Shown: piece after piece, positions 10,340 through 56,462 of the stretch
Numbering within the stretch: the first letter of the stretch is position 1
How the letters are laid out: every line of letters begins with the position of its first letter
Sequence record: MN850605.1
Source of the DNA: Escherichia phage fjerdesal
Length of the DNA stretch: 64,000 nucleotides
Reading direction: 5' to 3' (one strand)
The notes under the pieces: generated by a model
Told to the model about the DNA's origin: nothing
Seen by the model: only the letters and a program-made list of their open reading frames with translations
Databases searched by the model: none
Position numbers and translations under genes: made by a program

Positions 10340-10415
10340 TGGAGAATCCGAAGGGACTCGAACCCTTATAAACCTGTTTTGCAGACAGGCACATATCCAT
10401 TTCTGTCACGGATTC
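10340..10415 (-). tRNA. tRNA-Cys (anticodon GCA)
   Basis: Perfect 7-bp acceptor stem, T-arm AAGGG/TTCGAGT/CCCTT, anticodon loop CTGCAAA, U73, encoded CCA. Confidence 0.75.
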
Positions 10416-10419
10416 AAAT

Positions 10420-10512
10420 TGGAGGAAGATACCAGACTTGAACTGGTACACCGATTTCTCAGCTACTGGCAGTTTAGCAAACTGCTCCCTTACCTTTTAG
10501 GGTTAATCTTCC
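10420..10512 (-). tRNA. tRNA-Ser (anticodon GCT), type II
   Basis: Acceptor GGAAGAT/ATCTTCC, anticodon stem GCAGT/ACTGC loop TTGCTAA, long variable arm, T-arm ACCAG/TTCAAGT/CTGGT. Confidence 0.7.
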
Positions 10513-10513
10513 A

Positions 10514-11248
10514 TTATTTCTGTAATGCGCTCTTCATTTCTGGTGTTGCAATAGTGTCAATCACACCAGTTTTACAAGCATCGTCAAACCAGTCTGGTAA
10601 GATACCTGCTAAGAACCCATTGATATTCGTTTTAAGGTACTCTGCAATAAGGGCAGCTTCTTCTTCAATCATCTGCACAACTTCATCTGCATAAGCTGTA
10701 ATCTTTGAAATACCTTCATTAATCTTACTGACAGCTTGGTTAGCTAAATCAGAAACAGTATCAAGACCCTTATCAATAGCATCTTGTAAGTCACTTAACA
10801 CACCATTAACACTATCTAGTGTACTGTTCATCATGTCAATAGCTTTTTGACCATACTCTGTAGCAACACCCATGATACCACTGAATGGTTTACAACCAAC
10901 TTGTTCTCCTGCTGCACCCATAACATTGGAATACCCCTTTGCTACCTGCATACGTGATGAAAACTCATCAATAGATTTTTGACCGTAGTCTGTCAGAGTT
11001 TTAGTAGTTGCTGTAGTGCTTGTAAGGCTTGTTGTAAAGCTGTTTAGAAGGACTGTTGTAAGTCCAGCAGCAACAAGTTTCTCCTTCATTGTAGGGTCTG
11101 TTACAGAACTAATAGAGCTTACAAGTGATGTAGAAGCAGCTACGGTTCCACCGAGAACTGCTGCACCAGTAATAAGCGGGTTAGAGAACCCTTTACCAGT
11201 TTTTAAGAGATTAAAAATCTCCTTACCTTGTTCTGTCATCTCTTTCAT
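10514..11248 (-). CDS. hypothetical protein (Ser/Thr-rich)
   Basis: ORF 10514..11311 in track; start trimmed to ATG at 11248 because upstream part overlaps tRNA-Phe; AGGTG SD. Confidence 0.5.
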   Translation of the reverse strand: MKEMTEQGKEIFNLLKTGKGFSNPLITGAAVLGGTVAASTSLVSSISSVTDPTMKEKLVAAGLTTVLLNSFTTSLTSTTATTKTLTDYGQKSIDEFSSRMQVAKGYSNVMGAAGEQVGCKPFSGIMGVATEYGQKAIDMMNSTLDSVNGVLSDLQDAIDKGLDTVSDLANQAVSKINEGISKITAYADEVVQMIEEEAALIAEYLKTNINGFLAGILPDWFDDACKTGVIDTIATPEMKSALQK

Positions 11249-11266
11249 TAAGCACCTTTGAAATTG

Positions 11267-11343
11267 GTAGTCCAGTGGGATTTGAACCCTCTTCTCATGT
11301 TTTTCAGACACGCGCTTTAACCATATAAGCTACTTGGACTATA
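11267..11343 (-). tRNA. tRNA-Phe (anticodon GAA)
   Basis: T-loop TTCAAAT, anticodon stem CGTGT/ACATG loop CTGAAAA, D-stem GCTT/AAGC; 5' region slightly noncanonical. Confidence 0.6.
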
Positions 11344-11348
11344 AATTG

Positions 11349-11424
11349 GGGTGACCTACGGGATTTGAACCCGTATAGACCATGTTCACAGCATGGGTCA
11401 TTACCGTTTATGATAAGGCCACAT
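11349..11424 (-). tRNA. tRNA-His (anticodon GTG)
   Basis: Acceptor GTGGCCT/AGGTCAC, anticodon stem CCATG/CATGG loop CTGTGAA, C73, encoded CCA. Confidence 0.7.
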
Positions 11425-11455
11425 TTAAGGACTCTCGCAAGAATCCTTAGAAGTG

Positions 11456-11531
11456 GCAGCGGCATAAGGATTTGAACCTTAATAGGACAGCTTCAGAGGC
11501 TGCTGCATTGCCAGTTATGCTATACCGCTAA
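11456..11531 (-). tRNA. tRNA-Gln (anticodon CTG)
   Basis: D-stem GCAT/ATGC, anticodon stem GCAGC/GCTGT loop CTCTGAA, T-arm TAAGG/TTCAAAT/CCTTA, G73. Confidence 0.7.
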
Positions 11532-11536
11532 ATTTG

Positions 11537-11615
11537 GTACTCCATATCGGATTCGAACCGATACATAACACAGATTTTAAGTCTGGCCTCTCTGCCAATT
11601 GGAGTAATGGAGCAT
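11537..11615 (-). tRNA. tRNA with anticodon TAA (Leu-type anticodon, short variable arm)
   Basis: Acceptor GCTCCAT/ATGGAGT, T-arm ATCGG/TTCGAAT/CCGAT, anticodon loop CTTAAAA, A73; only 76 nt plus CCA. Confidence 0.6.
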
Positions 11616-11617
11616 TG

Positions 11618-11693
11618 GCGGGGGATGTTGGAATTGAACCAACTTCTTCGATTTCAAAGACCGAGGTTTTAACCTTGTAAACTAATCCCCTTT
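11618..11693 (-). tRNA. tRNA-Gln (anticodon TTG)
   Basis: T-arm GTTGG/TTCAATT/CCAAC, anticodon stem TCGGT/ATCGA loop CTTTGAA, G73, A1-C72 mismatch. Confidence 0.6.
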
Positions 11694-11699
11694 AAATCT

Positions 11700-12257
11700 T
11701 TACTTTCTCAGTGGATGAATAAAGAATGCCAACATAACTCTTTCCCTTGAGAATGCTCTTTCTTCTGGGACAACACTTTTTAGTTTCCATCCAATATAAA
11801 TTCTCCAGTAAAATTGTTTACCAAAGATTTTAATTGATGGGATAAAAGCGAATAATCCCCAAGCATTACTGTTCCACATTAGGAGATAACCTGTCTGATT
11901 ATCTTCGGGGTCAGAACTTACGTTGATATTACCTTTCCACTTAGTAACATCTCTTACATCTCTTCCTAATACATGGTAAGAGAAGTTATAAGCTTTGTTT
12001 CTCCAGAGCCATCCGACTCTTTGCATGTAGACACCTAGTTTACCAATCCATCTAATATTAGCCCATCTTTTAACGTGACCTTCATCACCATCAATTGGGT
12101 TGTCATATGTCTCCATCCATCTGAACCCGAAAGGTAAGTGTCCTTTCTTCTCACTGTAGAATGGAACTACAAAAGGTGCTAAGATAACTGCTAAGATTGC
12201 TGCAAATGGCTCTAACAAAGCTAAGAAAATCCATGAAGCATACTTCAAATATCTCAT
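11700..12257 (-). CDS. hypothetical membrane protein embedded in tRNA cluster
   Basis: 185-aa ORF with hydrophobic N-terminal segments. Confidence 0.55.
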   Translation of the reverse strand: MRYLKYASWIFLALLEPFAAILAVILAPFVVPFYSEKKGHLPFGFRWMETYDNPIDGDEGHVKRWANIRWIGKLGVYMQRVGWLWRNKAYNFSYHVLGRDVRDVTKWKGNINVSSDPEDNQTGYLLMWNSNAWGLFAFIPSIKIFGKQFYWRIYIGWKLKSVVPEERAFSRERVMLAFFIHPLRK

Positions 12258-12276
12258 CTAAATAGCCTCTTTAAAT

Positions 12277-12352
12277 TGGCGCAGGATAAGGGATTCGAAC
12301 CCCTATTAACAGCTTCGTAGACTGTTGCTCTATCCATTTGAACTAATCCTGC
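12277..12352 (-). tRNA. tRNA-Arg (anticodon ACG)
   Basis: Perfect acceptor GCAGGAT/ATCCTGC, anticodon stem ACAGT/GCTGT loop CTACGAA, encoded CCA. Confidence 0.75.
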
Positions 12353-12357
12353 AAAAT

Positions 12358-12435
12358 TGGTGTTCCAAGACGGATTCGAACCGTCACTAATACAAGGTTT
12401 GAGCTTGCATCCTCTGCCAATTGGGATACTGGAAC
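12358..12435 (-). tRNA. tRNA with anticodon CAA (Leu-type anticodon, short variable arm)
   Basis: Acceptor GTTCCAG/TTGGAAC, T-arm GACGG/TTCGAAT/CCGTC, anticodon stem GCAAG/CTTGT loop CTCAAAC, A73. Confidence 0.6.
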
Positions 12436-12436
12436 A

Positions 12437-12511
12437 TGGTACTCACTAAAGGACTTGAACCTTTTTCTTCATCTTGTAAGGGTGATGTTTTACCATATAA
12501 ACTAAGCGAGT
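12437..12511 (-). tRNA. tRNA-Val (anticodon TAC)
   Basis: D-stem GTTT/AAAC, T-arm AAAGG/TTCAAGT/CCTTT, anticodon loop CTTACAA, A73. Confidence 0.7.
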
Positions 12512-12518
12512 ATGAAAG

Positions 12519-12607
12519 AGGTCTGAAGTTGTGCCGCTAACTCAACTTCGTGGAATTTGTTACGGTCTTCAGTTGACTCAAAGCGGTCTTTCACTTGACC
12601 TCTGAAT
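12519..12607 (-). ncRNA. structured non-tRNA spacer element (GAGGTC...GACCTC closing stem, internal GAAGACCG motifs)
   Basis: 89-bp gap in tRNA array; terminal inverted repeat and internal hairpin, no canonical T-loop. Confidence 0.3.
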
Positions 12608-12683
12608 TGGTGCTCCCACAAGGACTCGAACCCTGATAAGTTGCTTACAAGGCAACCATAATAACCAATTATACGATAGGAGC
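12608..12683 (-). tRNA. tRNA-Thr (anticodon TGT)
   Basis: Anticodon stem GTTGC/GCAAC loop CTTGTAA, T-arm CAGGG/TTCGAGT/CCTTG, encoded CCA. Confidence 0.75.
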
Positions 12684-12690
12684 ATTAATT

Positions 12691-12765
12691 TGGAGCATCC
12701 AGAGGGAATCGAACCCTCAACCTCAGTTTGGAAGACTGTAATTTTCCCGTTTAAACTATGGATGC
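12691..12765 (-). tRNA. tRNA-Gly (anticodon TCC)
   Basis: Acceptor GCATCCA/TGGATGC, T-arm GAGGG/TTCGATT/CCCTC, loop CTTCCAA, U73. Confidence 0.75.
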
Positions 12766-12771
12766 ACTAAT

Positions 12772-12846
12772 TGGTGGAGTCACTGAGAATTGAACTCAGT
12801 TCCCAAGTTTGCAAAACTCGAATTTTAACCATATAAACTATGACCC
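12772..12846 (-). tRNA. tRNA-Ala (anticodon TGC)
   Basis: Acceptor with G3-U70 wobble (Ala identity), anticodon loop TTTGCAA, T-arm CTGAG/TTCAATT/CTCAG. Confidence 0.75.
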
Positions 12847-12854
12847 CCATTGTT

Positions 12855-12930
12855 TGGTACAGGTGGAGGGAATTGAACCCATCGTCTTACTGATTAAGAG
12901 TCAGCCGCATAACCATTTTGCTACACCTGC
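12855..12930 (-). tRNA. tRNA-Lys (anticodon CTT)
   Basis: Acceptor GCAGGTG/CACCTGT, anticodon stem GCTGA/TCAGT loop CTCTTAA, T-loop TTCAATT. Confidence 0.65.
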
Positions 12931-12937
12931 ATTAATT

Positions 12938-13014
12938 TGGTACACCTAGAGAGATTCGAACTCACACTGAGCAGATTCTAAGTCTGCTGCCTCTACCAGT
13001 TGGGCTATAGGTGC
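12938..13014 (-). tRNA. tRNA with anticodon TAG (Leu-type anticodon, short variable arm)
   Basis: Canonical D-arm GCC/AACTGGTAGA/GGC, perfect anticodon stem GCAGA/TCTGC loop CTTAGAA, T-loop TTCGAAT, A73. Confidence 0.65.
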
Positions 13015-13020
13015 ATTAAA

Positions 13021-13101
13021 TCTTTTTAGAGAACTTCTAAGAACCTGAGCAACAAGGTTCCACAACAAGCGACTAATAACCTTAGAAGCCCTCTAAAAAG
13101 A
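13021..13101. repeat. long inverted repeat (about 20-bp arms, about 40-nt loop) in tRNA cluster
   Basis: tctttttagagaacttctaag ... cttagaagccctctaaaaaga are reverse complements. Confidence 0.5.
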
Positions 13102-13268
13102 CCTAAATAGGTCTTTGCATAGTCTTGTTTAATCCGGTGACTAGAACCTTTGGAGAGCTTGATATTATCTCTTCTCCGTGACACCTACTAGGTGCTTTGA
13201 CAGTGTACGACAATACACGAGGGATAAACCGACAATGCGAACAAGCATGGACGGAGTAAATCTTATTA

Positions 13269-13358
13269 GGCGGTAAGTAAAGGAGTCGAACCCTCACCGT
13301 ATCTCTACAGTGGCAACAGTTTTCAAGACTGTTTGGCTGCCATTAGCCGCTACCTACC
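13269..13358 (-). tRNA. tRNA-Ser (anticodon TGA), type II
   Basis: Acceptor GGTAGGT/ACTTACC, anticodon stem ACAGT/ACTGT loop CTTGAAA, long variable arm, G73. Confidence 0.7.
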
Positions 13359-13371
13359 CCTAATAAGACTT

Positions 13372-13454
13372 TGGCATGGGACGGAGGAGTTGAACCCCTT
13401 TGAAACGGTTTTGGAGGCCGTTGCTCATGCCTTAGAGTCTTAACATCGTCCCAT
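13372..13454 (-). tRNA. tRNA-like gene, possibly tRNA-Trp (anticodon CCA) with atypical D-arm
   Basis: Perfect acceptor ATGGGAC/GTCCCAT, G73, encoded CCA, T-loop TTCAACT; anticodon stem AACGG/CCGTT enclosing 9-nt loop CCTCCAAAA. Confidence 0.45.
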
Positions 13455-13596
13455 ATTATAATTCGAAGCTTACCCTGTTATCTCAACACTGTCAAGCTTC
13501 TTCTCAGATTATTTACATGTTCTGGAAAACATGAGATACAGACCACCTCCCTACAGGAAGACCCGCTAAGGCCGTCTAAGTAATCTGCTAACTATT

Positions 13597-13673
13597 TGGT
13601 ACACCCTACAGGATTCGAACCTGTAACTAACGATTTAGAAGACCGTTGCTCTATCCAATTGAACTAAGGGTGC
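13597..13673 (-). tRNA. tRNA-Arg (anticodon TCT)
   Basis: D-arm GTTC/AATTGGATA/GAGC, anticodon stem ACGGT/ATCGT loop CTTCTAA, T-arm ACAGG/TTCGAAT/CCTGT. Confidence 0.75.
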
Positions 13674-13875
13674 ATTATCTTTAAAGACTCTCTTAGAAAG
13701 CCCTTAAAGATGCCCACCTTATTAATCATACCGTGGGCGAGTACGCCAAATTCTTTGATGAGGGATTGGAAGACCTCACTGGTGTTTAGCCTATCAAGCT
13801 ACTGCCAGAAAAACATTGTCGTTTGCATTTATTTTAAATTTGCAAAATAGACGCTACGCAACGAAAACTAAGGTT

Positions 13876-13904
13876 ACTATAAAGTAGTCACATCTCAATG
13901 TCAA
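13876..13904 (-). promoter_or_regulatory. sigma70-type promoter inside tRNA cluster (TTGACA-N17-TATAGT)
   Basis: Minus-strand TTGACATTGAGATGTGACTACTTTATAGT; reads toward tRNA-Arg(TCT) sub-cluster. Confidence 0.55.
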
Positions 13905-13919
13905 CAACTTTATTGAAAT

Positions 13920-13995
13920 TGGTACTGGTAGGTGGAATCGAACCACCGATGTTCCCTTATCAGGGGAGTGTTATAACCTTCTTAACTATACCAGC
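13920..13995 (-). tRNA. tRNA-Ile (anticodon GAT)
   Basis: D-arm GTTA/AGAAGGTTA/TAAC, T-arm GGTGG/TTCGATT/CCACC, loop CTGATAA. Confidence 0.7.
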
Positions 13996-13996
13996 T

Positions 13997-14073
13997 TGGA
14001 GGTTCAGATGGGAATCGAACCCACATTCATAGGGCTTATGAGACCCTTGCATTACCTTATCTGCGACTGAACC
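13997..14073 (-). tRNA. tRNA-Met (anticodon CAT)
   Basis: Acceptor GGTTCAG/CTGAACC, anticodon stem AGGGT/GCCCT loop CTCATAA. Confidence 0.7.
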
Positions 14074-14077
14074 ATAT

Positions 14078-14153
14078 TGGTAGAAGTGGAGGGATTCGAA
14101 CCCATCGCCTGTCAGATTAAAAGTCTGCCGCATCACCATTCTGCTACACTTCC
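14078..14153 (-). tRNA. tRNA-Lys (anticodon TTT)
   Basis: Acceptor GGAAGTG/CACTTCT, loop CTTTTAA, T-loop TTCGAAT. Confidence 0.65.
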
Positions 14154-14163
14154 ATTAAATTAT

Positions 14164-14297
14164 CTTTGTAGATAAGCTACCCAGACTTGCTTAAGGTCTG
14201 TAGCGATGTGCCTTTTTTGGGTTTAAATCTAGAATTTACCCATTCACCCTTTGTGGTCGCATACTCACAAGTAAGCTTAATAACTTATCTACAAAGG
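14164..14297. repeat. 13-bp perfect inverted repeat (ctttgtagataag / cttatctacaaag) separated by about 108 bp
   Basis: Exact reverse-complement arms at 14164-14176 and 14285-14297. Confidence 0.5.
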
Positions 14298-14299
14298 TA

Positions 14300-14440
14300 A
14301 TTACCAGACCGTTGTTTATCATCTTAAGTGCTACCATTACACCAACTCGACATCTGCCGAGTGAAGGAATCGAACCTTCGCCTTTTCTTTACCGGAGAAA
14401 TAGATTGTTTAAGTTTTGCTGTAAACGGCCTTCTGTAAAT
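14300..14440 (-). ncRNA. candidate Y-RNA-like element containing a circularly permuted tRNA-like module
   Basis: Minus strand order: T-arm GAAGG/TTCGATT/CCTTC (14363-14379), closed acceptor-like hairpin ACTCGGC-AGAT-GTCGAGT (14345-14362), D-arm-like GTG/TAATGGTAG/CAC (14328-14343); flanked by AGGCCGTT / AACGGTCT complementary segments; no anticodon arm. Confidence 0.35.
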
Positions 14441-14586
14441 TTGTTGAGCCAGACCAAGTTTTAAATTTTCAAAATTAAATTGGCTTGAAAATATCATACG
14501 TTCTTGCTGAATTTGGTCTTCTGCTCCTTTAAAGAATACTCGTAAGAACTCTTTAAGGGAGGGGCTAAATAGCCCTCTCAAAATTG

Positions 14587-14661
14587 GCGGCTACGATGAG
14601 ACTTGAACTCACATCATCTCCCGTGACAGGGGAGTATTTTCTCCAGTTAAACTACATAGCC
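14587..14661 (-). tRNA. tRNA-Asp (anticodon GTC)
   Basis: Acceptor GGCTATG/CGTAGCC, perfect anticodon stem CTCCC/GGGAG loop CTGTCAC, G73, encoded CCA. Confidence 0.75.
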
Positions 14662-14666
14662 TTTAT

Positions 14667-14754
14667 TGGTGTGCCGTGTAGGAGTCGAACCTACCGAGTC
14701 TCAATGACAAGGGATTTACAGTCCCCACCGCTACCATCTACGGGATAACGACAC
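14667..14754 (-). tRNA. tRNA-Tyr (anticodon GTA), type II
   Basis: T-arm GTAGG/TTCGACT/CCTAC, anticodon loop CTGTAAA, long variable arm. Confidence 0.7.
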
Positions 14755-14762
14755 ATTTAATT

Positions 14763-14839
14763 TGGCGGTTAGTCAGGGATTCGAACCCTGTGCCATTCGC
14801 TTAACAGGCGACCGCACATACCTTATGTGCTTCCTAACC
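14763..14839 (-). tRNA. tRNA-Asn (anticodon GTT)
   Basis: T-arm CAGGG/TTCGAAT/CCCTG, anticodon loop CTGTTAA, G73. Confidence 0.65.
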
Positions 14840-14917
14840 TTAATACATTGCCAGACCGTGTTTTTTCTTTTATCCGCAAAAAAGTATTTTGTTGCTGAAT
14901 ACGGTCTTCTGCAAAAT

Positions 14918-14994
14918 TGGAGGCGGGTGCAGGAGTCGAACCTGCCGATACCATGCTAATGAGACATGTGAGACGCCCTTTCTCTATACCCGCA
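14918..14994 (-). tRNA. tRNA with anticodon CAT (Met or lysidine-type Ile2)
   Basis: T-arm GCAGG/TTCGACT/CCTGC, anticodon stem CATGT/GCATG loop CTCATTA. Confidence 0.6.
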
Positions 14995-15085
14995 ATTCTT
15001 AATGACCAGACCAAATCTCTTCTTTGTCCGATTTACCTTCAGATGAATAAGATTAAGTTTGCTGTAATTGGTCTTCTGTCAAAAC

Positions 15086-15163
15086 TGGCGTTCCAGAAGG
15101 GATTTGAACCCTCAGATATCCACTTTGAAAGAGTGGTGACTATACCATTTTGTCTACTGGAAC
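15086..15163 (-). tRNA. tRNA-Glu (anticodon TTC)
   Basis: Acceptor GTTCCAG/CTGGAAC, perfect anticodon stem CCACT/AGTGG loop CTTTCAA, G73. Confidence 0.75.
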
Positions 15164-15170
15164 ATTAATT

Positions 15171-15247
15171 TGGTCTCTGTTGGAGGACTTGAACCTCCGG
15201 CCTTACCGCCCCAAACGGAACGCTCTACCAATCTGAGCTAAACAGAG
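15171..15247 (-). tRNA. tRNA-Pro (anticodon TGG)
   Basis: Perfect acceptor CTCTGTT/AACAGAG, D-arm GCTC/AGATTGGTA/GAGC, loop TTTGGGG, T-arm GGAGG/TTCAAGT/CCTCC. Confidence 0.75.
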
Positions 15248-32693: not shown

Positions 32694-33479
32694 TTAGTTC
32701 TTTGCGGCTAAGAAGGTAACTTCTGGCGAAGAGAAAACTGTCTCGATATCCTCATCAGTTCTTGCATAGATGTAAGTATCTGCATCACTGCCAAATGTTA
32801 CTGCAATCCTGTGATTGCTCTTCGACAGGTGGGTAACTAGAGCGTTACTTAGAGACATCTTTTCAACCGGAGGGTTACTTTGATGTATCTTACCTTTTCT
32901 TCGTCTGAAGAGGGTAACTGCATTATCCGTGAACACAACTACACCTGCGAAGTATTCTGGTTCACAGTAGTTCTTCCAACCTGAGCGTAACTTGTGGTAC
33001 ATCTCTCCTTCATAGACATATAGATAAACATCTACGCTCTTCATTACCTGATTGATGATAACTGTGACGGCTTGAGGGTCCAACCCACCGATACCTGCAC
33101 CAATCATAGGTAAACCAACTTTCTTCAACTGATTAACTTCACAGTATCTGTTAAGTTGCTTCAAAGATGACTCTAAAGCACTGTATCGGGCATCTTTACC
33201 AGTCTTAAGCTGAGTGTAAAGGTTAGCTATACGACCTTGTTTTAAACGTGCTACGGAGAAATTACCTAGTAAATTTTCACAGGGTTTGTGGCCTATACCA
33301 CCTGCATATAGATAAACTTCTGTATCGGTCTCATATGCTTCTGGGTAAAGTTTAGAAATCTTGTCAGCGATACCTGCACCCATTAAATTCATACAGTTGC
33401 AACCGTGACCAATGATGTCAAACTTACCTTTATCAAATGCAGCAAAGATGTCACCATTGATGATTTTTACAATACCCAT
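32694..33479 (-). CDS. macro-domain protein (ADP-ribose binding/processing) with C-terminal extension
   Basis: 261 aa; N-terminal INGDIFAA...FDIIGHGCNCMNLMGAGIADKI and VGLPMIGAGIGGL match macro-domain glycine-rich motifs. Confidence 0.6.
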   Translation of the reverse strand: MGIVKIINGDIFAAFDKGKFDIIGHGCNCMNLMGAGIADKISKLYPEAYETDTEVYLYAGGIGHKPCENLLGNFSVARLKQGRIANLYTQLKTGKDARYSALESSLKQLNRYCEVNQLKKVGLPMIGAGIGGLDPQAVTVIINQVMKSVDVYLYVYEGEMYHKLRSGWKNYCEPEYFAGVVVFTDNAVTLFRRRKGKIHQSNPPVEKMSLSNALVTHLSKSNHRIAVTFGSDADTYIYARTDEDIETVFSSPEVTFLAAKN

Positions 33480-41556: not shown

Positions 41557-41580
41557 AGCATTCTCCAGAAATTAAAAAGG

Positions 41581-41606
41581 CTCCCGTAGGAGCCTCTTAT
41601 CATATA
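41581..41606 (-). terminator. rho-independent terminator
   Basis: Minus strand GGCTCC-TACG-GGAGCC hairpin followed by TTTTT. Confidence 0.55.
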
Positions 41607-41609
41607 CTT

Positions 41610-43391
41610 TTAAAGCTGCTTGTCAATATTATTTCGAATATCACCAAGAGTTGTGTAACCGTACTGCTCAGAGTCGCTAAAGACTAAACGTAAAGCACAA
41701 GCTGGATGTTCAAGTGCATCTGCAAAGCTCTGGAATCCATAGCCATCTACAGCTTTCAAATTCTCACCATCCCACATAGGTGCTACACCACCAAAGGCAG
41801 ATTTCTTAACACCACTATCTGTTTTAGGGTCTTTTGCAAGCATAATCTCTTTGCCACCAATGCTTGCAAGAGTTGCTTTGACAGCAAATGCAAAGGTGTC
41901 ACGAGTCATGTACTGGTAAGTGTAAGAGCCTACACCAAACACCACGTTAGAGCTTGCAAACCCCATTTCATACAGACGCTTTAGGATTTCGTTTGCACGT
42001 TCCAACGTGATAGAGTCACCATAGATAAGTCCAATGTGCTCATCCAGTACCTTAAAACCTTTAGAGTTGATAGTTCCTCCAAAGATGTTATACAATGTCT
42101 TAATAGCTCCATCAATCTCTGCTACAGGGCGTGTTACAACGTTTGCAGAGCCAACCATATAAGCGTTCTTCAACATCACTGTGTCAGCAACTTCAAAGTC
42201 TTCTCTGTCAACAACCATTTCGTAGCCTTCTGACAGTAGCCATCCAGCAATACCATAGCTGACGTTTTCAAGCTTCATGTTCAGAACAGCATTCAGCATT
42301 GTGTCACTGGCTTCCAGCTTACTAAGGTGCTCATAATAAGCCTTTTTAGCGCACTCTAAGTGGATTGCTTTATAACCTGTGACAATGTGTACAGGGTCTC
42401 CAGAGTCAGGACGAATTACCAGTTTGCCATCACGTTCCATAATTTCTTTACGGAGTGCTGGTAAGATTTCTGACACAGTTCTCCAGAAGTTATAAGTATC
42501 TGAAACAATACTTGCAATACCCGTTGGGTAAGTTTCTGTTAAGAAACGACGGAAGGTTTGTAACTCACCTTTAAAGCGTCTTTCTTCTTCAATCAACTCA
42601 TTGCCACCTTCCCAAGCAATGTTTGCACACATTACAGAGTGCTCAGTGGCTGGTACAGAGCTACCAATATCAGAGATTGGGTAGGACTGTCCATAGATTC
42701 GTTTAGCCGTATACACAGCAGGGAAGCTATCAGTTCCTTTAAAGCTGGTTAAGTGACCTACAGCGTTAAATGCGTCATCAGTAAAGCCGGACATACCACG
42801 CATAGCAAAATCATGGCACTGATAAGGTAAATGTAAGTCATTGTCACAAGTAAGGTCAGCCCACTTCTTACAGATGCGTTTGTAATGCAATGCAATAGTT
42901 GCAATGGTGCAAGCCTTCCAAATTTCAGCAGAGAAAGCATCTTCCAGATAACCTGCTACCCAATGAAAACCTGAAACAGTGTTCTGAAAGACAATCATCG
43001 GGACACGCATTGGAACAACTGTGCCTTCTTCTACAGCGTATACTTCAACTGGTAGATAACCTAAGTCGTGAAGTGCTTCCCAATGCTCTCGACCGATAGC
43101 ATCTTTACCCAGAACACCATTCATGACTTCTAAGATTTCATCAATGGCTTCTTTTTTATCACGTTCAAAGAAAGTGGCATTCCAGTGGTCTATCAAGTAA
43201 TCTTTAACAAAACGTTGAATACCAAAAGCCACTACACCGTCAATTGCTAAAGGGCTGTTAAACCATTTATCACTACGTGGTGTTAGGTTGAACATCAAGT
43301 ACTCTGTTGCGCTAGGATACTGGTAAACATGACCAGATTTGTAAGCATCTGCATTTAAACCTGCTGGTACTGCATAAAGTGATTTAGTCAT
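41610..43391 (-). CDS. nicotinamide phosphoribosyltransferase family protein (NAMPT/NadV-like; possible NARP1 Namat)
   Basis: 593 aa; N-terminal NADAYKSGH... and overall NAPRTase-family look; adjacent to Prs-like gene. Confidence 0.7.
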   Translation of the reverse strand: MTKSLYAVPAGLNADAYKSGHVYQYPSATEYLMFNLTPRSDKWFNSPLAIDGVVAFGIQRFVKDYLIDHWNATFFERDKKEAIDEILEVMNGVLGKDAIGREHWEALHDLGYLPVEVYAVEEGTVVPMRVPMIVFQNTVSGFHWVAGYLEDAFSAEIWKACTIATIALHYKRICKKWADLTCDNDLHLPYQCHDFAMRGMSGFTDDAFNAVGHLTSFKGTDSFPAVYTAKRIYGQSYPISDIGSSVPATEHSVMCANIAWEGGNELIEEERRFKGELQTFRRFLTETYPTGIASIVSDTYNFWRTVSEILPALRKEIMERDGKLVIRPDSGDPVHIVTGYKAIHLECAKKAYYEHLSKLEASDTMLNAVLNMKLENVSYGIAGWLLSEGYEMVVDREDFEVADTVMLKNAYMVGSANVVTRPVAEIDGAIKTLYNIFGGTINSKGFKVLDEHIGLIYGDSITLERANEILKRLYEMGFASSNVVFGVGSYTYQYMTRDTFAFAVKATLASIGGKEIMLAKDPKTDSGVKKSAFGGVAPMWDGENLKAVDGYGFQSFADALEHPACALRLVFSDSEQYGYTTLGDIRNNIDKQL

Positions 43392-43436
43392 CTTTTAATC
43401 TCTCTCAAAATGGGGCTTGGAAGCCCCTATAAAGTT

Positions 43437-44318
43437 TTAATCAAGGTTTGCTACAGTAACTTGGCTATAATGTGTTAAGCCACGGTCTTTAGCTTCTCCT
43501 AAAGAGTTTGTAGTGTAGATATGGTCAATACCATTGTCAAGCAAGTTTTCAACATCTTTAGAGAAGATACCATGTGTTACATAGAGTTCCACACGTTTTG
43601 CACCTGCTTCACGAAGATGCTTAGCTGCTTCTATGAAGGTTCGACCACCATCACAGATATCATCCAGAATCATGACTGTTTTATCTGTCAAATCAACATC
43701 ATCAAGGATTCGCATACCAGTAATTTCACCAGTCTTAAGGTTACGCACCTTAGACATTGTGATATATGGTTTATCCACCTCTTTAGCGGTCTCTGCAACC
43801 TTCTTAGCAGCACCTGCATCTGGGGCTACTAAGTAATCAACCAGTGGGTCATTTGCATAGTGGACTGCAATCTCCTTTTGAGGAATACTCTGGAAGCAGT
43901 TAAACAGGTTATCTGGAACGTAACTGTGAGGGTCAACTGCACAGACTGCACCAAACCCCATTGCATTTATCTGTTTAGCAAAAACCTTTAAAGCTGCTGC
44001 GTCGCCTTTAAACATGTGACGGTCATAACGTGCATTTGGTAAGTAGTAAAAGATGACAGTCTTTAAAGCATAATCATGAGGAATTAAATCATCAATTGCT
44101 TCTTTAGCAAGTGCCACAGCAAACAATGTATCCTTATCATAACCTTTTACAATCATAATCACATTGTTGATGGATGATGCTGCATAAGCAGTGAAATCAA
44201 CAAACTCTGGCGAAAAGTGTCCACCAATCTCACCAGAAGGAAATTGGATGATGTTAAACTCATCTTCATGAGTTCCTTTAGTTGGTGAATGAACTGTAAC
44301 ACGGATAGATGTTTTCAT
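43437..44318 (-). CDS. ribose-phosphate pyrophosphokinase family protein (Prs-like; possible NARP1 Adps)
   Basis: PRPP-binding motif VMILDDICDGGRT; start set at SD-preceded ATG (track ORF extends to 44333). Confidence 0.7.
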   Translation of the reverse strand: MKTSIRVTVHSPTKGTHEDEFNIIQFPSGEIGGHFSPEFVDFTAYAASSINNVIMIVKGYDKDTLFAVALAKEAIDDLIPHDYALKTVIFYYLPNARYDRHMFKGDAAALKVFAKQINAMGFGAVCAVDPHSYVPDNLFNCFQSIPQKEIAVHYANDPLVDYLVAPDAGAAKKVAETAKEVDKPYITMSKVRNLKTGEITGMRILDDVDLTDKTVMILDDICDGGRTFIEAAKHLREAGAKRVELYVTHGIFSKDVENLLDNGIDHIYTTNSLGEAKDRGLTHYSQVTVANLD

Positions 44319-44329
44319 AGTTTTCTCTC

Positions 44330-44608
44330 TCAATCAAAAGTTACGTTTGTTACTGCCATTGCAGATTTGCATTTTGCAGGGTCTACAACGTGATAAAGTA
44401 CACTACAGTTACCTGTGCTGTCTGGTACAGGTTTAACCCATTGTTGCTTGACAGTTGGTTCGCCTAAGTCTTTGTAAGAACCATCTGTAAAGTTGTTTAC
44501 CATCTCAAGTGCAATTGGCTCTGGAACATGACCACGTATCATGTACATTTCACAACCATTACCTCCTTCACTGACTAATGGTAAAATCTCCCACTTTTCT
44601 TTAGCCAT
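44330..44608 (-). CDS. hypothetical protein
   Basis: 92-aa ORF. Confidence 0.5.
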   Translation of the reverse strand: MAKEKWEILPLVSEGGNGCEMYMIRGHVPEPIALEMVNNFTDGSYKDLGEPTVKQQWVKPVPDSTGNCSVLYHVVDPAKCKSAMAVTNVTFD

Positions 44609-45116
44609 TATAAGTTGCCCTATAAACTGTCTCGAACTTCAACAGGAGAGATATTGCCAAATCTGTATAGTTGTTGTCAAGCACATCTGGCATATTATTT
44701 TTGATATATCTCTCTTGCTCTTCATAGGTCATCTTAGGGGCACTTAAAAGGCTATCTCCTTGCTTCTGGTTATCAGCTTTAGTCTGAATAAACCAGTTTG
44801 CACAGTGATGTTCACCACCTTTTGTAACAGGTTTGTGGTGGCCTAATGTGAAGGATTGACTGCCTGTGTATCTGCAAAGTTTATTGAGTACTGTAATGGT
44901 GTTCTTCACAACAAAACATTCATACAGGTTGTCTATGGTGTAGTATGGATAATATCGAAATAATGCTCTTTCACGAGTACTCTCACGATTCCAGAGAATC
45001 ATGTGATTGGAGTTGGAAGGGTCGTATTGGTGGGAGTCAATGAACTCTTGACGTTCCTCAAAACTGAGTCTTAACACTGACATTGCAGCAGAACGTTTCA
45101 GATTTGACAGATACAT
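44601..45116 (-). CDS. HNH homing endonuclease
   Basis: 171 aa; HNH motif LGHHKPVTKGGEHHCANWFIQTKADNQKQG. Confidence 0.65.
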   Translation of the reverse strand: MYLSNLKRSAAMSVLRLSFEERQEFIDSHQYDPSNSNHMILWNRESTRERALFRYYPYYTIDNLYECFVVKNTITVLNKLCRYTGSQSFTLGHHKPVTKGGEHHCANWFIQTKADNQKQGDSLLSAPKMTYEEQERYIKNNMPDVLDNNYTDLAISLLLKFETVYRATYNG

Positions 45117-45167
45117 ATTATCTCCAAAATAAAAAGGGAACCTTTACAGTTCCCTTATAGTATCTGC

Positions 45168-55440: not shown

Positions 55441-55941
55441 TCAAGCACAATTTGCTTTCATGACCTTATGGATTCTTTTTTCAGCATCTTCATAAGTTTC
55501 TTTAGTAATAAACTTAATTGCTGCAATATTGGCATTGTAGAAGAGTCTGAGCTTCGAGTCAATCCTTTTTGTCATTACATCGAATTTATGTTGAAGGTTT
55601 GCTTCACCATAGACTAGGCCACCTTTTGTGTAGTAGGTCTGAATAATGTAAAAGTCAAAAAATTCTTTTCCAAAGCTTTCAATATCTTTTTTAATATACT
55701 CAGAAGAAGTCTCATAAGTCATCCAATCACTTTCCTTAGTGACTACCTTCTTCCGAGTCTTGCCAGCAACTTTTCTTTTGGTCACACTGTTAAGCTGTTT
55801 CTTACCCAAATAGTACTGTCCAGTCTTTTTGCAGTACACTAGGTAGACAAAACCAAAGTGCTTTGCTGGGTCAACTTCACCACATAGTGAAACCCAATGT
55901 CCATATTCAGGACAATTGCCAAAACCTTTTATTTTTCTCAT
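55441..55941 (-). CDS. hypothetical protein, possible GIY-YIG-like endonuclease
   Basis: FGFVYLVYCKKTGQYYLGKK loosely resembles GIY...YIG; weak. Confidence 0.45.
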   Translation of the reverse strand: MRKIKGFGNCPEYGHWVSLCGEVDPAKHFGFVYLVYCKKTGQYYLGKKQLNSVTKRKVAGKTRKKVVTKESDWMTYETSSEYIKKDIESFGKEFFDFYIIQTYYTKGGLVYGEANLQHKFDVMTKRIDSKLRLFYNANIAAIKFITKETYEDAEKRIHKVMKANCA

Positions 55942-56462
55942 TCATAAGCTTCTCCGTGATTTGTAAACTCTTTATGGAGTTCTTCTCTTTTCTTTTTGAC
56001 AACTAATTCAGCCTCAGCGATAGAGTCAAATAAACCTAGATGATAGCAAACTTTATTATGCTTGACTTGTGCAGCCCATCTACCTCTTTGCTTATGGTAA
56101 TATACACCCTTCACACCAGATTTATTATCTCTTCTTTTGGCTGCATTACAGTTATTATCTGACCTGCTACACTCTCTCAAATTGTCGAACCAGTTGTCGT
56201 GCCTGATACCATTCTTATGGTCAACAAATTTTGGTAGGTATCCTTTCATATACAAGAATGCCAGTCTGTGTGCTGCATATCTTTTCCCGAAGAGTTTTAT
56301 GTAGATATAACCACTATGATGTTTAAGACCCGCTACTGAGCCAGCTTTGGCCTTACCTTTTCTATTAACTAACCAAGTAAAGACCCCTGTTTCGGGGTCA
56401 TAGTGCAGGTATTCTTTAAGAGTTTGTTGGGTTAACATTTGGTGTCCATCCATACTTATCAA
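55938..56462 (-). CDS. HNH homing endonuclease with AP2-like DNA-binding domain
   Basis: HNH motif VDHKNGIRHDNWFDNL...N; AP2-like SGVKGVYYHKQRGRWAAQV. Confidence 0.65.
   Translation of the reverse strand: MISMDGHQMLTQQTLKEYLHYDPETGVFTWLVNRKGKAKAGSVAGLKHHSGYIYIKLFGKRYAAHRLAFLYMKGYLPKFVDHKNGIRHDNWFDNLRECSRSDNNCNAAKRRDNKSGVKGVYYHKQRGRWAAQVKHNKVCYHLGLFDSIAEAELVVKKKREELHKEFTNHGEAYE

Follow-up and report, generated by a model that had tools for sequence, protein, structure and literature searches.

Do the adjacent NAMPT-family and Prs-family genes of Escherichia phage fjerdesal (sequence record MN850605.1) provide a classical route of NAD+ salvage, or do they rebuild NAD+ to counter host immunity? 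The two genes lie on the minus strand of the 64,000-nucleotide stretch analysed here (the window), and an earlier note had suggested that they form a NAD+ reconstitution (NARP1-type) pair rather than the salvage genes as which such pairs were classically annotated. The comparisons bear this suggestion out: with a probability of about 90%, the pair is a NARP1 operon of a Felixounavirus, which would function in counter-defence, and which represents an already described system. The preference for an Adps/Namat pair over classical salvage draws on synteny with phage Bas63, the 98% and 77% identity of the Namat and Adps proteins to their Bas63 counterparts, the residues associated with the use of ADP-ribose pyrophosphate (ADPR-PP), and previously published tables. 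In the proposed mechanism, a host defence (SIR2-HerA, DSR1/2, type I Thoeris, SEFIR and similar systems) would cleave NAD+ into ADP-ribose and nicotinamide; Adps would then use ATP to pyrophosphorylate ADP-ribose to ADPR-PP; and Namat would combine ADPR-PP with nicotinamide to generate NAD+ directly, without the host’s salvage through nicotinamide mononucleotide (NMN). This analysis provides the gene anatomy, the orthology, and the conserved catalytic and specificity residues. The chemistry is taken by analogy from the enzymes of Bacillus phage SPbetaL1 (SpβL1), and the anti-defence phenotype from a deletion mutant of Bas63, with the fjerdesal Adps allele expected to behave like these tested homologs. 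There is little new in the main finding: it is an ordinary instance of a published pathway, in the genus in which that pathway was discovered.

Minus-strand open reading frames (ORFs) were confirmed at both positions, co-oriented and separated by a spacer of 45 nt. The downstream gene, namat (41610..43391, minus strand), encodes a 593-aa putative nicotinamide ADP-ribose transferase of the NAMPT family, which matched the Pfam families NAPRTase (E 6.7e-35) and NAMPT_N, while the ORF at 43437-44333 matched Pribosyltran and Pribosyl_synth. The adjacency, shared orientation and family assignments of the earlier note thus stand, but the 298 aa it gave for the Prs-family protein do not. That length comes from taking the longest ORF mechanically, beginning at a TTG (44333) that overlaps the stop codon of the upstream gene. 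The start of adps is instead likely to be the ATG at 44318, because the ribosome-binding motif GAGAGAGA precedes both this codon and the Namat start, and because this choice agrees with both the annotated Bas63 gene 79 and the Table S1 sequences of Osterman et al. (bioRxiv 10.1101/2024.02.11.579819). On this call, adps (43437..44318, minus strand) encodes a 293-aa putative ADP-ribose pyrophosphate synthetase of the Prs family, with the N-terminus MKTSIRV. The adps-then-namat order is present in Bas63 and in 28/28 of the related viral contigs retrieved, hence the adjacency of the pair is not attributable to chance.

The 4.2-kb region matched 257 phage records, nearly all of them Felix O1-like myoviruses of Escherichia, Salmonella, Shigella and Citrobacter, with Escherichia typing phage 1 the top match at 96.1% nucleotide identity; by sequence, the source phage is assigned to the genus Felixounavirus. 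Every annotated matching record names the genes in the language of salvage, as a ribose-phosphate pyrophosphokinase and a nicotinamide (or nicotinate) phosphoribosyltransferase. In the Felixounavirus Bas63 (JohannRWettstein; MZ501086), genes 79 and 80 equal the fjerdesal pair in their lengths (293 and 593 aa), in their hairpin-bearing 45-nt spacer, in their genomic position, and in their neighbours, with the NrdG region on one side, and two small ORFs and rIIA on the other. The two loci are alignable across ~9.5 kb at 87-94% identity. Namat is identical to Bas63_0080 at 584/593 residues (98%), and Adps is 77% identical to Bas63_0079, a value that combines 94% identity in the C-terminal half with only ~66% protein identity over residues 1-175, where the two phages carry different alleles. 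The pair is accordingly best described as orthologous to Bas63 genes 79-80, which would place it within the type lineage of NARP1.

It was in Bas63 that NARP1 was discovered, through the deletion of genes 79-80, and on a host carrying SIR2-HerA the plaque count of the deletion mutant was lower by about 20-fold (Osterman et al., bioRxiv 10.1101/2024.02.11.579819). Detection of ADPR-PP required both the defence system and genes 79-80, and the effect was still seen when the host was ΔpncCΔnadR, excluding NMN-dependent salvage (bioRxiv 10.1101/2024.02.11.579819). Knowledge of the NARP1 chemistry is limited to Bas63, through in vivo metabolomics, and to the enzymes of SpβL1, DyoEdafos, Gary and P. 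foliorum; NARP1 profiles are included in AntiDefenseFinder.

Because of its synteny and 77% identity with Bas63_0079, the tabulation of near-identical proteins, its relative bit scores, and its failure against models of canonical enzymes, Adps appears to belong to the phage Adps clade, and not to the cellular Prs clade. The tabulated proteins are KP869100_00096 and JX560968_00133 (Table S1 of bioRxiv 10.1101/2024.02.11.579819), which begin MKTSIRVTVHSPTKGTHEEEFN, as does the fjerdesal allele, and which have a Namat within ten genes; the NAMPT homologs of both phages were entered in Table S2 of the same study as Adps-associated NadV. Adps scored 117 bits against the Gary-type (Thalassavirus) Adps and 100 against SpβL1 Adps, versus 62 against E. 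coli Prs, to which it is 29% identical across 195 aa. It failed the cutoffs of all NCBIfam Prs equivalogs, the top score being 105.8 bits where 296 were needed, and the only Prs model it passed was the broad TIGR01251 subfamily (125 versus 113). Canonical Prs (E. coli b1207) and NAMPT/NadV salvage enzymes share their superfamilies, folds and core catalytic motifs with the fjerdesal pair. Residues D219, D220 and G225 of Adps are invariant even in comparison with E. coli Prs, and K190 aligns to SpβL1 K162, the equivalent of B. subtilis Prs K197, replacement of which in SpβL1 Adps (K162A) abolished activity (Osterman et al., bioRxiv 10.1101/2024.02.11.579819). Unlike canonical Prs, however, the fjerdesal protein follows the characterised Adps enzymes in its flexible loop and PDAGAAK motif: the loop pattern K-x-R-x-x-x-TGEI and this motif are common to both characterised Adps proteins, and not found in E. 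coli Prs. The loop itself, SKVRNLKTGEI, is the same in all alleles. The binding loop for ribose-5-phosphate or phosphoribosyl pyrophosphate (PRPP), quoted in the earlier note as VMILDDICDGGRT, is indeed encoded at 43638..43676 (minus strand), and is invariant across three Adps alleles.

For Namat, the closest solved relatives by sequence are the Namat crystals 9w5w/9w5x (E about 1e-128), compared with about 1e-40 for human NAMPT. An AlphaFold model (pLDDT, the predicted local confidence, of 93.9; 48-sequence alignment) had 9w5x/9w5w as its closest folds, at a target TM of 0.95, with HdNadV and human or mammalian NAMPT ranking lower. Of the 20 residues that contact the ligand in the SpβL1 Namat-NAD+ structure, 16 are unchanged in the fjerdesal protein, including R327, the equivalent of R306, and the catalytic histidine H251. 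The four changes were R40 to K42 (with W43 adjoining), the aromatic exchange F392 to Y490, S190 to A196, and A362 to S460. The NAMPT-like catalytic core, comprising a nicotinamide-stacking Phe/Tyr, a hydrogen-bonding Asp, the Arg306 equivalent and the catalytic His, is kept relative to SpβL1 Namat (D15, Y17, F195, R198, D221, A248, H251, R327, D329, G458 and D459). Specificity is associated with two elements. One is the selectivity-clamp helix, for which residues 488-498 of Namat (41898..41930, minus strand) read GSYTYQYMTRD, a motif match that fits the family signature GSXΦXΦXΦTRD with Y490 and Y494; the third Φ is Met rather than the usual Asn or Val, as it is in Bas63. The other is the selectivity-clamp loop, S40-D41-K42-W43, which is identical in Bas63 Namat. 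This loop supplies the residue that stacks on adenine, being either Arg at position 3, or Lys or Tyr followed by a stacking residue, with Bas63 an example of the Lys type (PMC12774641). Therefore the residues that determine the use of ADPR-PP are, by alignment, present in Namat, including an adenine clamp of a kind that NAMPTs lack.

These comparisons also define how far the fjerdesal pair has diverged from the characterised systems. NARP1 of SpβL1 (genes 190-191; PMC12774641) shares the two-gene order and the Adps catalytic lysine, and its Namat shares the catalytic core, helix signature, loop stacking residue and fold. Yet identity between the proteins is just 36-38%, the two genes of SpβL1 directly adjoin each other rather than being separated by a hairpin-bearing spacer, and fjerdesal Namat uses K42/W43 in place of R40 and has gained a 15-aa insert and an extra 88-aa subdomain. 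The latter (residues 340-427; 42111..42374, minus strand) is absent from SpβL1 Namat and NAMPT, and lies between the RPDSGDP strand and the GxIExLWxIFGG helix, at a site where unrelated insertions of 0-90 aa are found across the family. It is restricted to Ounavirinae-type phages, and is evolving faster than the core, its identity to the Suspvirus-type lineage being 41-50%, versus 78-88% for the core. The insert is predicted to form a compact alpha/beta subdomain (pLDDT 94-97 in context, 85.5 alone), the fold of which had no structural match. It is nevertheless compatible with function, as Bas63 has the same insert. NARP2 of Vibrio phage KVP40, which consists of a NAMPT and a bifunctional NMNAT, similarly restores NAD+ during infection using a NAMPT-family enzyme. 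However, PRPP is the substrate in NARP2 and an NMNAT is required, whereas fjerdesal Namat carries the ADPR-PP clamp, and no NMNAT, Nudix or RyR domain was found in a Pfam screen of the 99 ORFs of the window, among the matches listed (25 of the 27 families in one scan).

Namat homologs also occur outside phages: chromosomal Namat/NAMPT homologs of 495-496 aa, about 47% identical to fjerdesal Namat, occur widely in Klebsiella, Cronobacter, Kosakonia and Phytobacter, where the contigs reach 6 Mb, and could correspond to the NARP1 or NAMPT copies that the literature describes for bacteria. Separately, GU169904 (‘Staphylococcus phage SA1’), which is listed in a published NARP1 table with Staphylococcus as its host, combines a Namat segment of Felixounavirus type, which shares 98.9% identity with that of fjerdesal, with a Bas63-type Adps, and looks to be a mislabelled or chimeric record.

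Fjerdesal departs from Bas63 in the N-terminal half of Adps (residues 1-175; 43794..44318, minus strand), where it carries an allele, here termed type A, 65-71% identical to the type B of Bas63. The final 90 nt of the upstream gene match Bas63 at 100%, after which nucleotide identity is 60-66% for the initial 270 nt of adps before returning to about 91% by position 43800, such that the breakpoint falls exactly at the adps start codon, within flanks that are 94-100% identical. Across fjerdesal, Bas63 and the 28 viral contigs, the main cluster has a Namat that is 95-99% identical throughout and an Adps N-terminal half in two forms: type A in fjerdesal and 18 contigs, which are 90-99% identical to each other, and type B in Bas63 and three contigs. 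The remaining seven contigs constitute a sister lineage with a third form of Adps, type C, and a Namat of 605-609 aa that is about 76% identical. Prs-type motifs are invariant across all three forms, with the differences concentrated in patches between them. Type A is the commoner allele, in 154 records versus at most 94, and is always paired with Namat.

By the Nei-Gojobori method, the synonymous divergence (dS) between types A and B is about 2.0 in the N-terminal half, and hence saturated, compared with 0.38 in the C-terminal half and 0.23 in Namat. The ratio of non-synonymous to synonymous divergence (omega) is about 0.12 between the alleles in the N-terminal half, and 0.09-0.17 within them. 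These values rule out diversifying selection, or an arms race, acting on this region. A recent import of the Bas63-type sequence from the sister lineage is likewise ruled out, given that type B is 73-80% identical to the sister allele; the corresponding figure for type A is 65-74%. Rather, the pattern is that of an old allele, apparently imported by recombination and maintained under purifying selection. As Bas63 is type B and fjerdesal type A, the in vivo evidence from Bas63 concerns the other allele, and this natural allele pair could be used to map the parts of the enzyme that tolerate change.

Several observations weigh against reading the fjerdesal pair as NARP1. A search of the PDB returned no Adps structure in which the ADP-ribose adenosine site could be placed, with canonical Prs as the top matches, at E values no better than 1e-18, and by plain similarity archaeal class III Prs (E 1.9e-18) and distant Adps are about equally close to the fjerdesal protein. 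The in vitro chemistry comes from the SpβL1 enzymes, which have diverged from the fjerdesal proteins to the extent described above; the N-terminal half of Adps shares just ~66% identity with the allele tested in vivo; and Namat also makes NMN from PRPP in vitro. The remaining doubt therefore reflects the allelic difference in Adps, and a basis in homologs rather than in fjerdesal assays. The retained NMN synthesis is also an argument for classical salvage, in which the Prs-like enzyme would make PRPP from ribose-5-phosphate, the NAMPT-like enzyme would make NMN, and host NadR or PncC would complete NAD+. The Pfam, PHROG and NCBIfam names point the same way, and Namat passes the cutoff of NF006629, ‘nicotinate phosphoribosyltransferase’. 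Yet Bas63 overcame SIR2-HerA in hosts lacking both pncC and nadR, with ADPR-PP found in infected cells, and SpβL1 Adps acts on ADP-ribose, with Namat producing nothing but NAD+ when PRPP and ADPR-PP were supplied together. Combined with the adenine clamp in fjerdesal Namat, the failure of Adps against every Prs equivalog, and the lack of a detected NMNAT in the window, this makes salvage extremely unlikely as the function of the pair.

A different possibility accepts the NARP1 chemistry, and instead proposes that its main role is general NAD+ upkeep, for example the recycling of ADP-ribose released by phage or host ADP-ribosylation. Such a housekeeping role has been suggested in the literature for NARP1 homologs in non-mobile bacterial regions, and the fjerdesal pair sits in a block of nucleotide metabolism genes beside the Nrd genes. 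We consider this very unlikely, as in Bas63 both the ADPR-PP and the deletion phenotype depended on the defence system, and the Adps clade is almost exclusively phage-borne. It is also conceivable that the type A N-terminal half alters substrate range, regulation or oligomeric state, such that the pair is not functionally equivalent to that of Bas63: the two alleles are 65-71% identical in this half, compared with 96-99% for the accompanying Namat proteins, and the N-terminal ~90 aa are the part least alignable to canonical Prs. However, the catalytic motifs are invariant across types A, B and C, the low omega and saturated dS indicate an old allele under purifying selection rather than adaptive change, and a functionally altered variant would have to be the commoner allele, unfailingly accompanied by Namat, making this the least credible of the three. 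The NARP1 reading would predict that Felixounaviruses are able to infect hosts with NAD+-depleting defences. The pipeline names, ribose-phosphate pyrophosphokinase and nicotinamide phosphoribosyltransferase, would hide this counter-defence role, and correct labels matter for phage therapy, in which Felixounaviruses are widely used.

The range of defences overcome might be broadened further by a distal gene. Extensions of NARP1 place extra genes in the operon, encoding either the Macro-domain ADPR-1''-phosphatase Adpp, in the NARP1-AP variant that overcomes aRES (bioRxiv 10.64898/2026.01.28.702374), or the RyR-domain glycosidase RyDEP. No Macro, RyR (RyDEP), Nudix or NMNAT gene was found in or beside the fjerdesal operon by Pfam or among the flanking genes, with the four nearest neighbours lacking Macro; nothing lies between adps and namat, and NARP1-AP is defined by a Macro gene within two genes. 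There is, though, a Macro-domain gene at 32694-33479 (minus strand), on the same strand as the pair and about 8 kb and about 14 genes downstream of Namat. It encodes a 261-aa protein with an N-terminal Pfam Macro domain (32.1 bits versus a cutoff of 22), sits at the position of bas63_0095, annotated as a ‘putative phosphatase’, and matches phrog_335, ‘phosphatase’, with E 3e-113. Among solved structures its top match is TARG1/OARD1, with Poa1p marginal, and against the DarG model it reaches E 8e-13, well below the model cutoff. A point of reference is gp176 of Vibrio phage Achelous: its gene separates adps from namat, and the protein shares 98.7% identity with the characterised Adpp of Gary. 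Gp176 has the same PDB profile, with TARG1 top and Poa1p marginal, and is 29% identical to the fjerdesal Macro protein over 164 aa (E 1e-14). The fjerdesal protein is thus placed by homology in the same broad family as Adpp.

Family membership alone is not proof of a NARP1-linked role, because the Adpp/Macro family is found in about 2,700-2,800 phage records, most of them without NARP1, including many T4-like phages without Adps. Given the likeness to TARG1/DarG macrodomains, an anti-DarT or general de-ADP-ribosylase role would be equally possible. In comparison with the Adps-Adpp-Namat NARP1-AP of Gary/Thalassavirus, fjerdesal has an Adps that is 38% identical and also encodes an Adpp-family Macro protein, but the Gary Macro gene is between adps and namat, rather than about 8 kb away, and the fjerdesal protein has an extra C-terminal region of ~100 aa. 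We therefore raise only tentatively, and regard as rather doubtful, the idea that Felixounaviruses run a split NARP1-AP, in which the distal Macro protein would act in trans as an Adpp-type phosphatase on the aRES product ADPR-1''-P, supplying ADP-ribose to Adps and Namat. In that case, the phages would be resistant to aRES as well as to SIR2- and TIR-type NADases. The survey of NARP1-AP counted Macro genes only within two genes of NARP1, finding a prevalence of 15%, and no Felixounaviruses appear in the tables of that paper (bioRxiv 10.64898/2026.01.28.702374). As the gene at 32694-33479 is outside this ±2-gene window, the published surveys would miss it, and were the split arrangement real, the 15% prevalence would be an underestimate.

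The transcription unit containing the pair probably extends upstream of adps. The promoter and terminator scan called a terminator-like hairpin of 10 pairs followed by a T-run at 41575..41598 (minus strand), 12 nt past the Namat stop, which is the probable 3' end of the unit, and another at 45134..45156 (minus strand), upstream of a 171-aa gene, which is the probable boundary to the preceding unit. Two overlapping genes of unknown function occupy 44330..45116 (minus strand): the 171-aa gene (phrog_3500), with faint HNH-like and DUF7167 signals, and a 92-aa gene (phrog_4726). Both keep their position in Bas63, the related loci and the sister lineage, and their location, flanked by the upstream hairpin and adps, makes co-transcription with adps and namat probable.

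The 45-nt spacer between adps and namat contains a GC-rich hairpin, GGGGCU-UCCA-AGCCCC, followed by AUUUU (43412..43427, minus strand). Its stem is kept in all lineages, including through a compensatory pair in L013/L014, while its loop is free to vary. The fold energy is unremarkable (z = -1.7), and as this hairpin was also not called by the promoter and terminator scan, a function as an intrinsic terminator was rejected. In six related loci (L009, L010, L016, L017, L024 and L026) the hairpin is replaced by an insert of ~470 nt with a gene for a 163-aa HNH/AP2 homing endonuclease, relative to which the fjerdesal spacer (43392-43436) is the empty site. A related ORF with HNH_3 and AP2 domains is present elsewhere in the window, at 55938-56462. 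The window also includes 26 tRNA genes, clustered at 10340-15247 (minus strand), as expected in a Felix O1-like genome.

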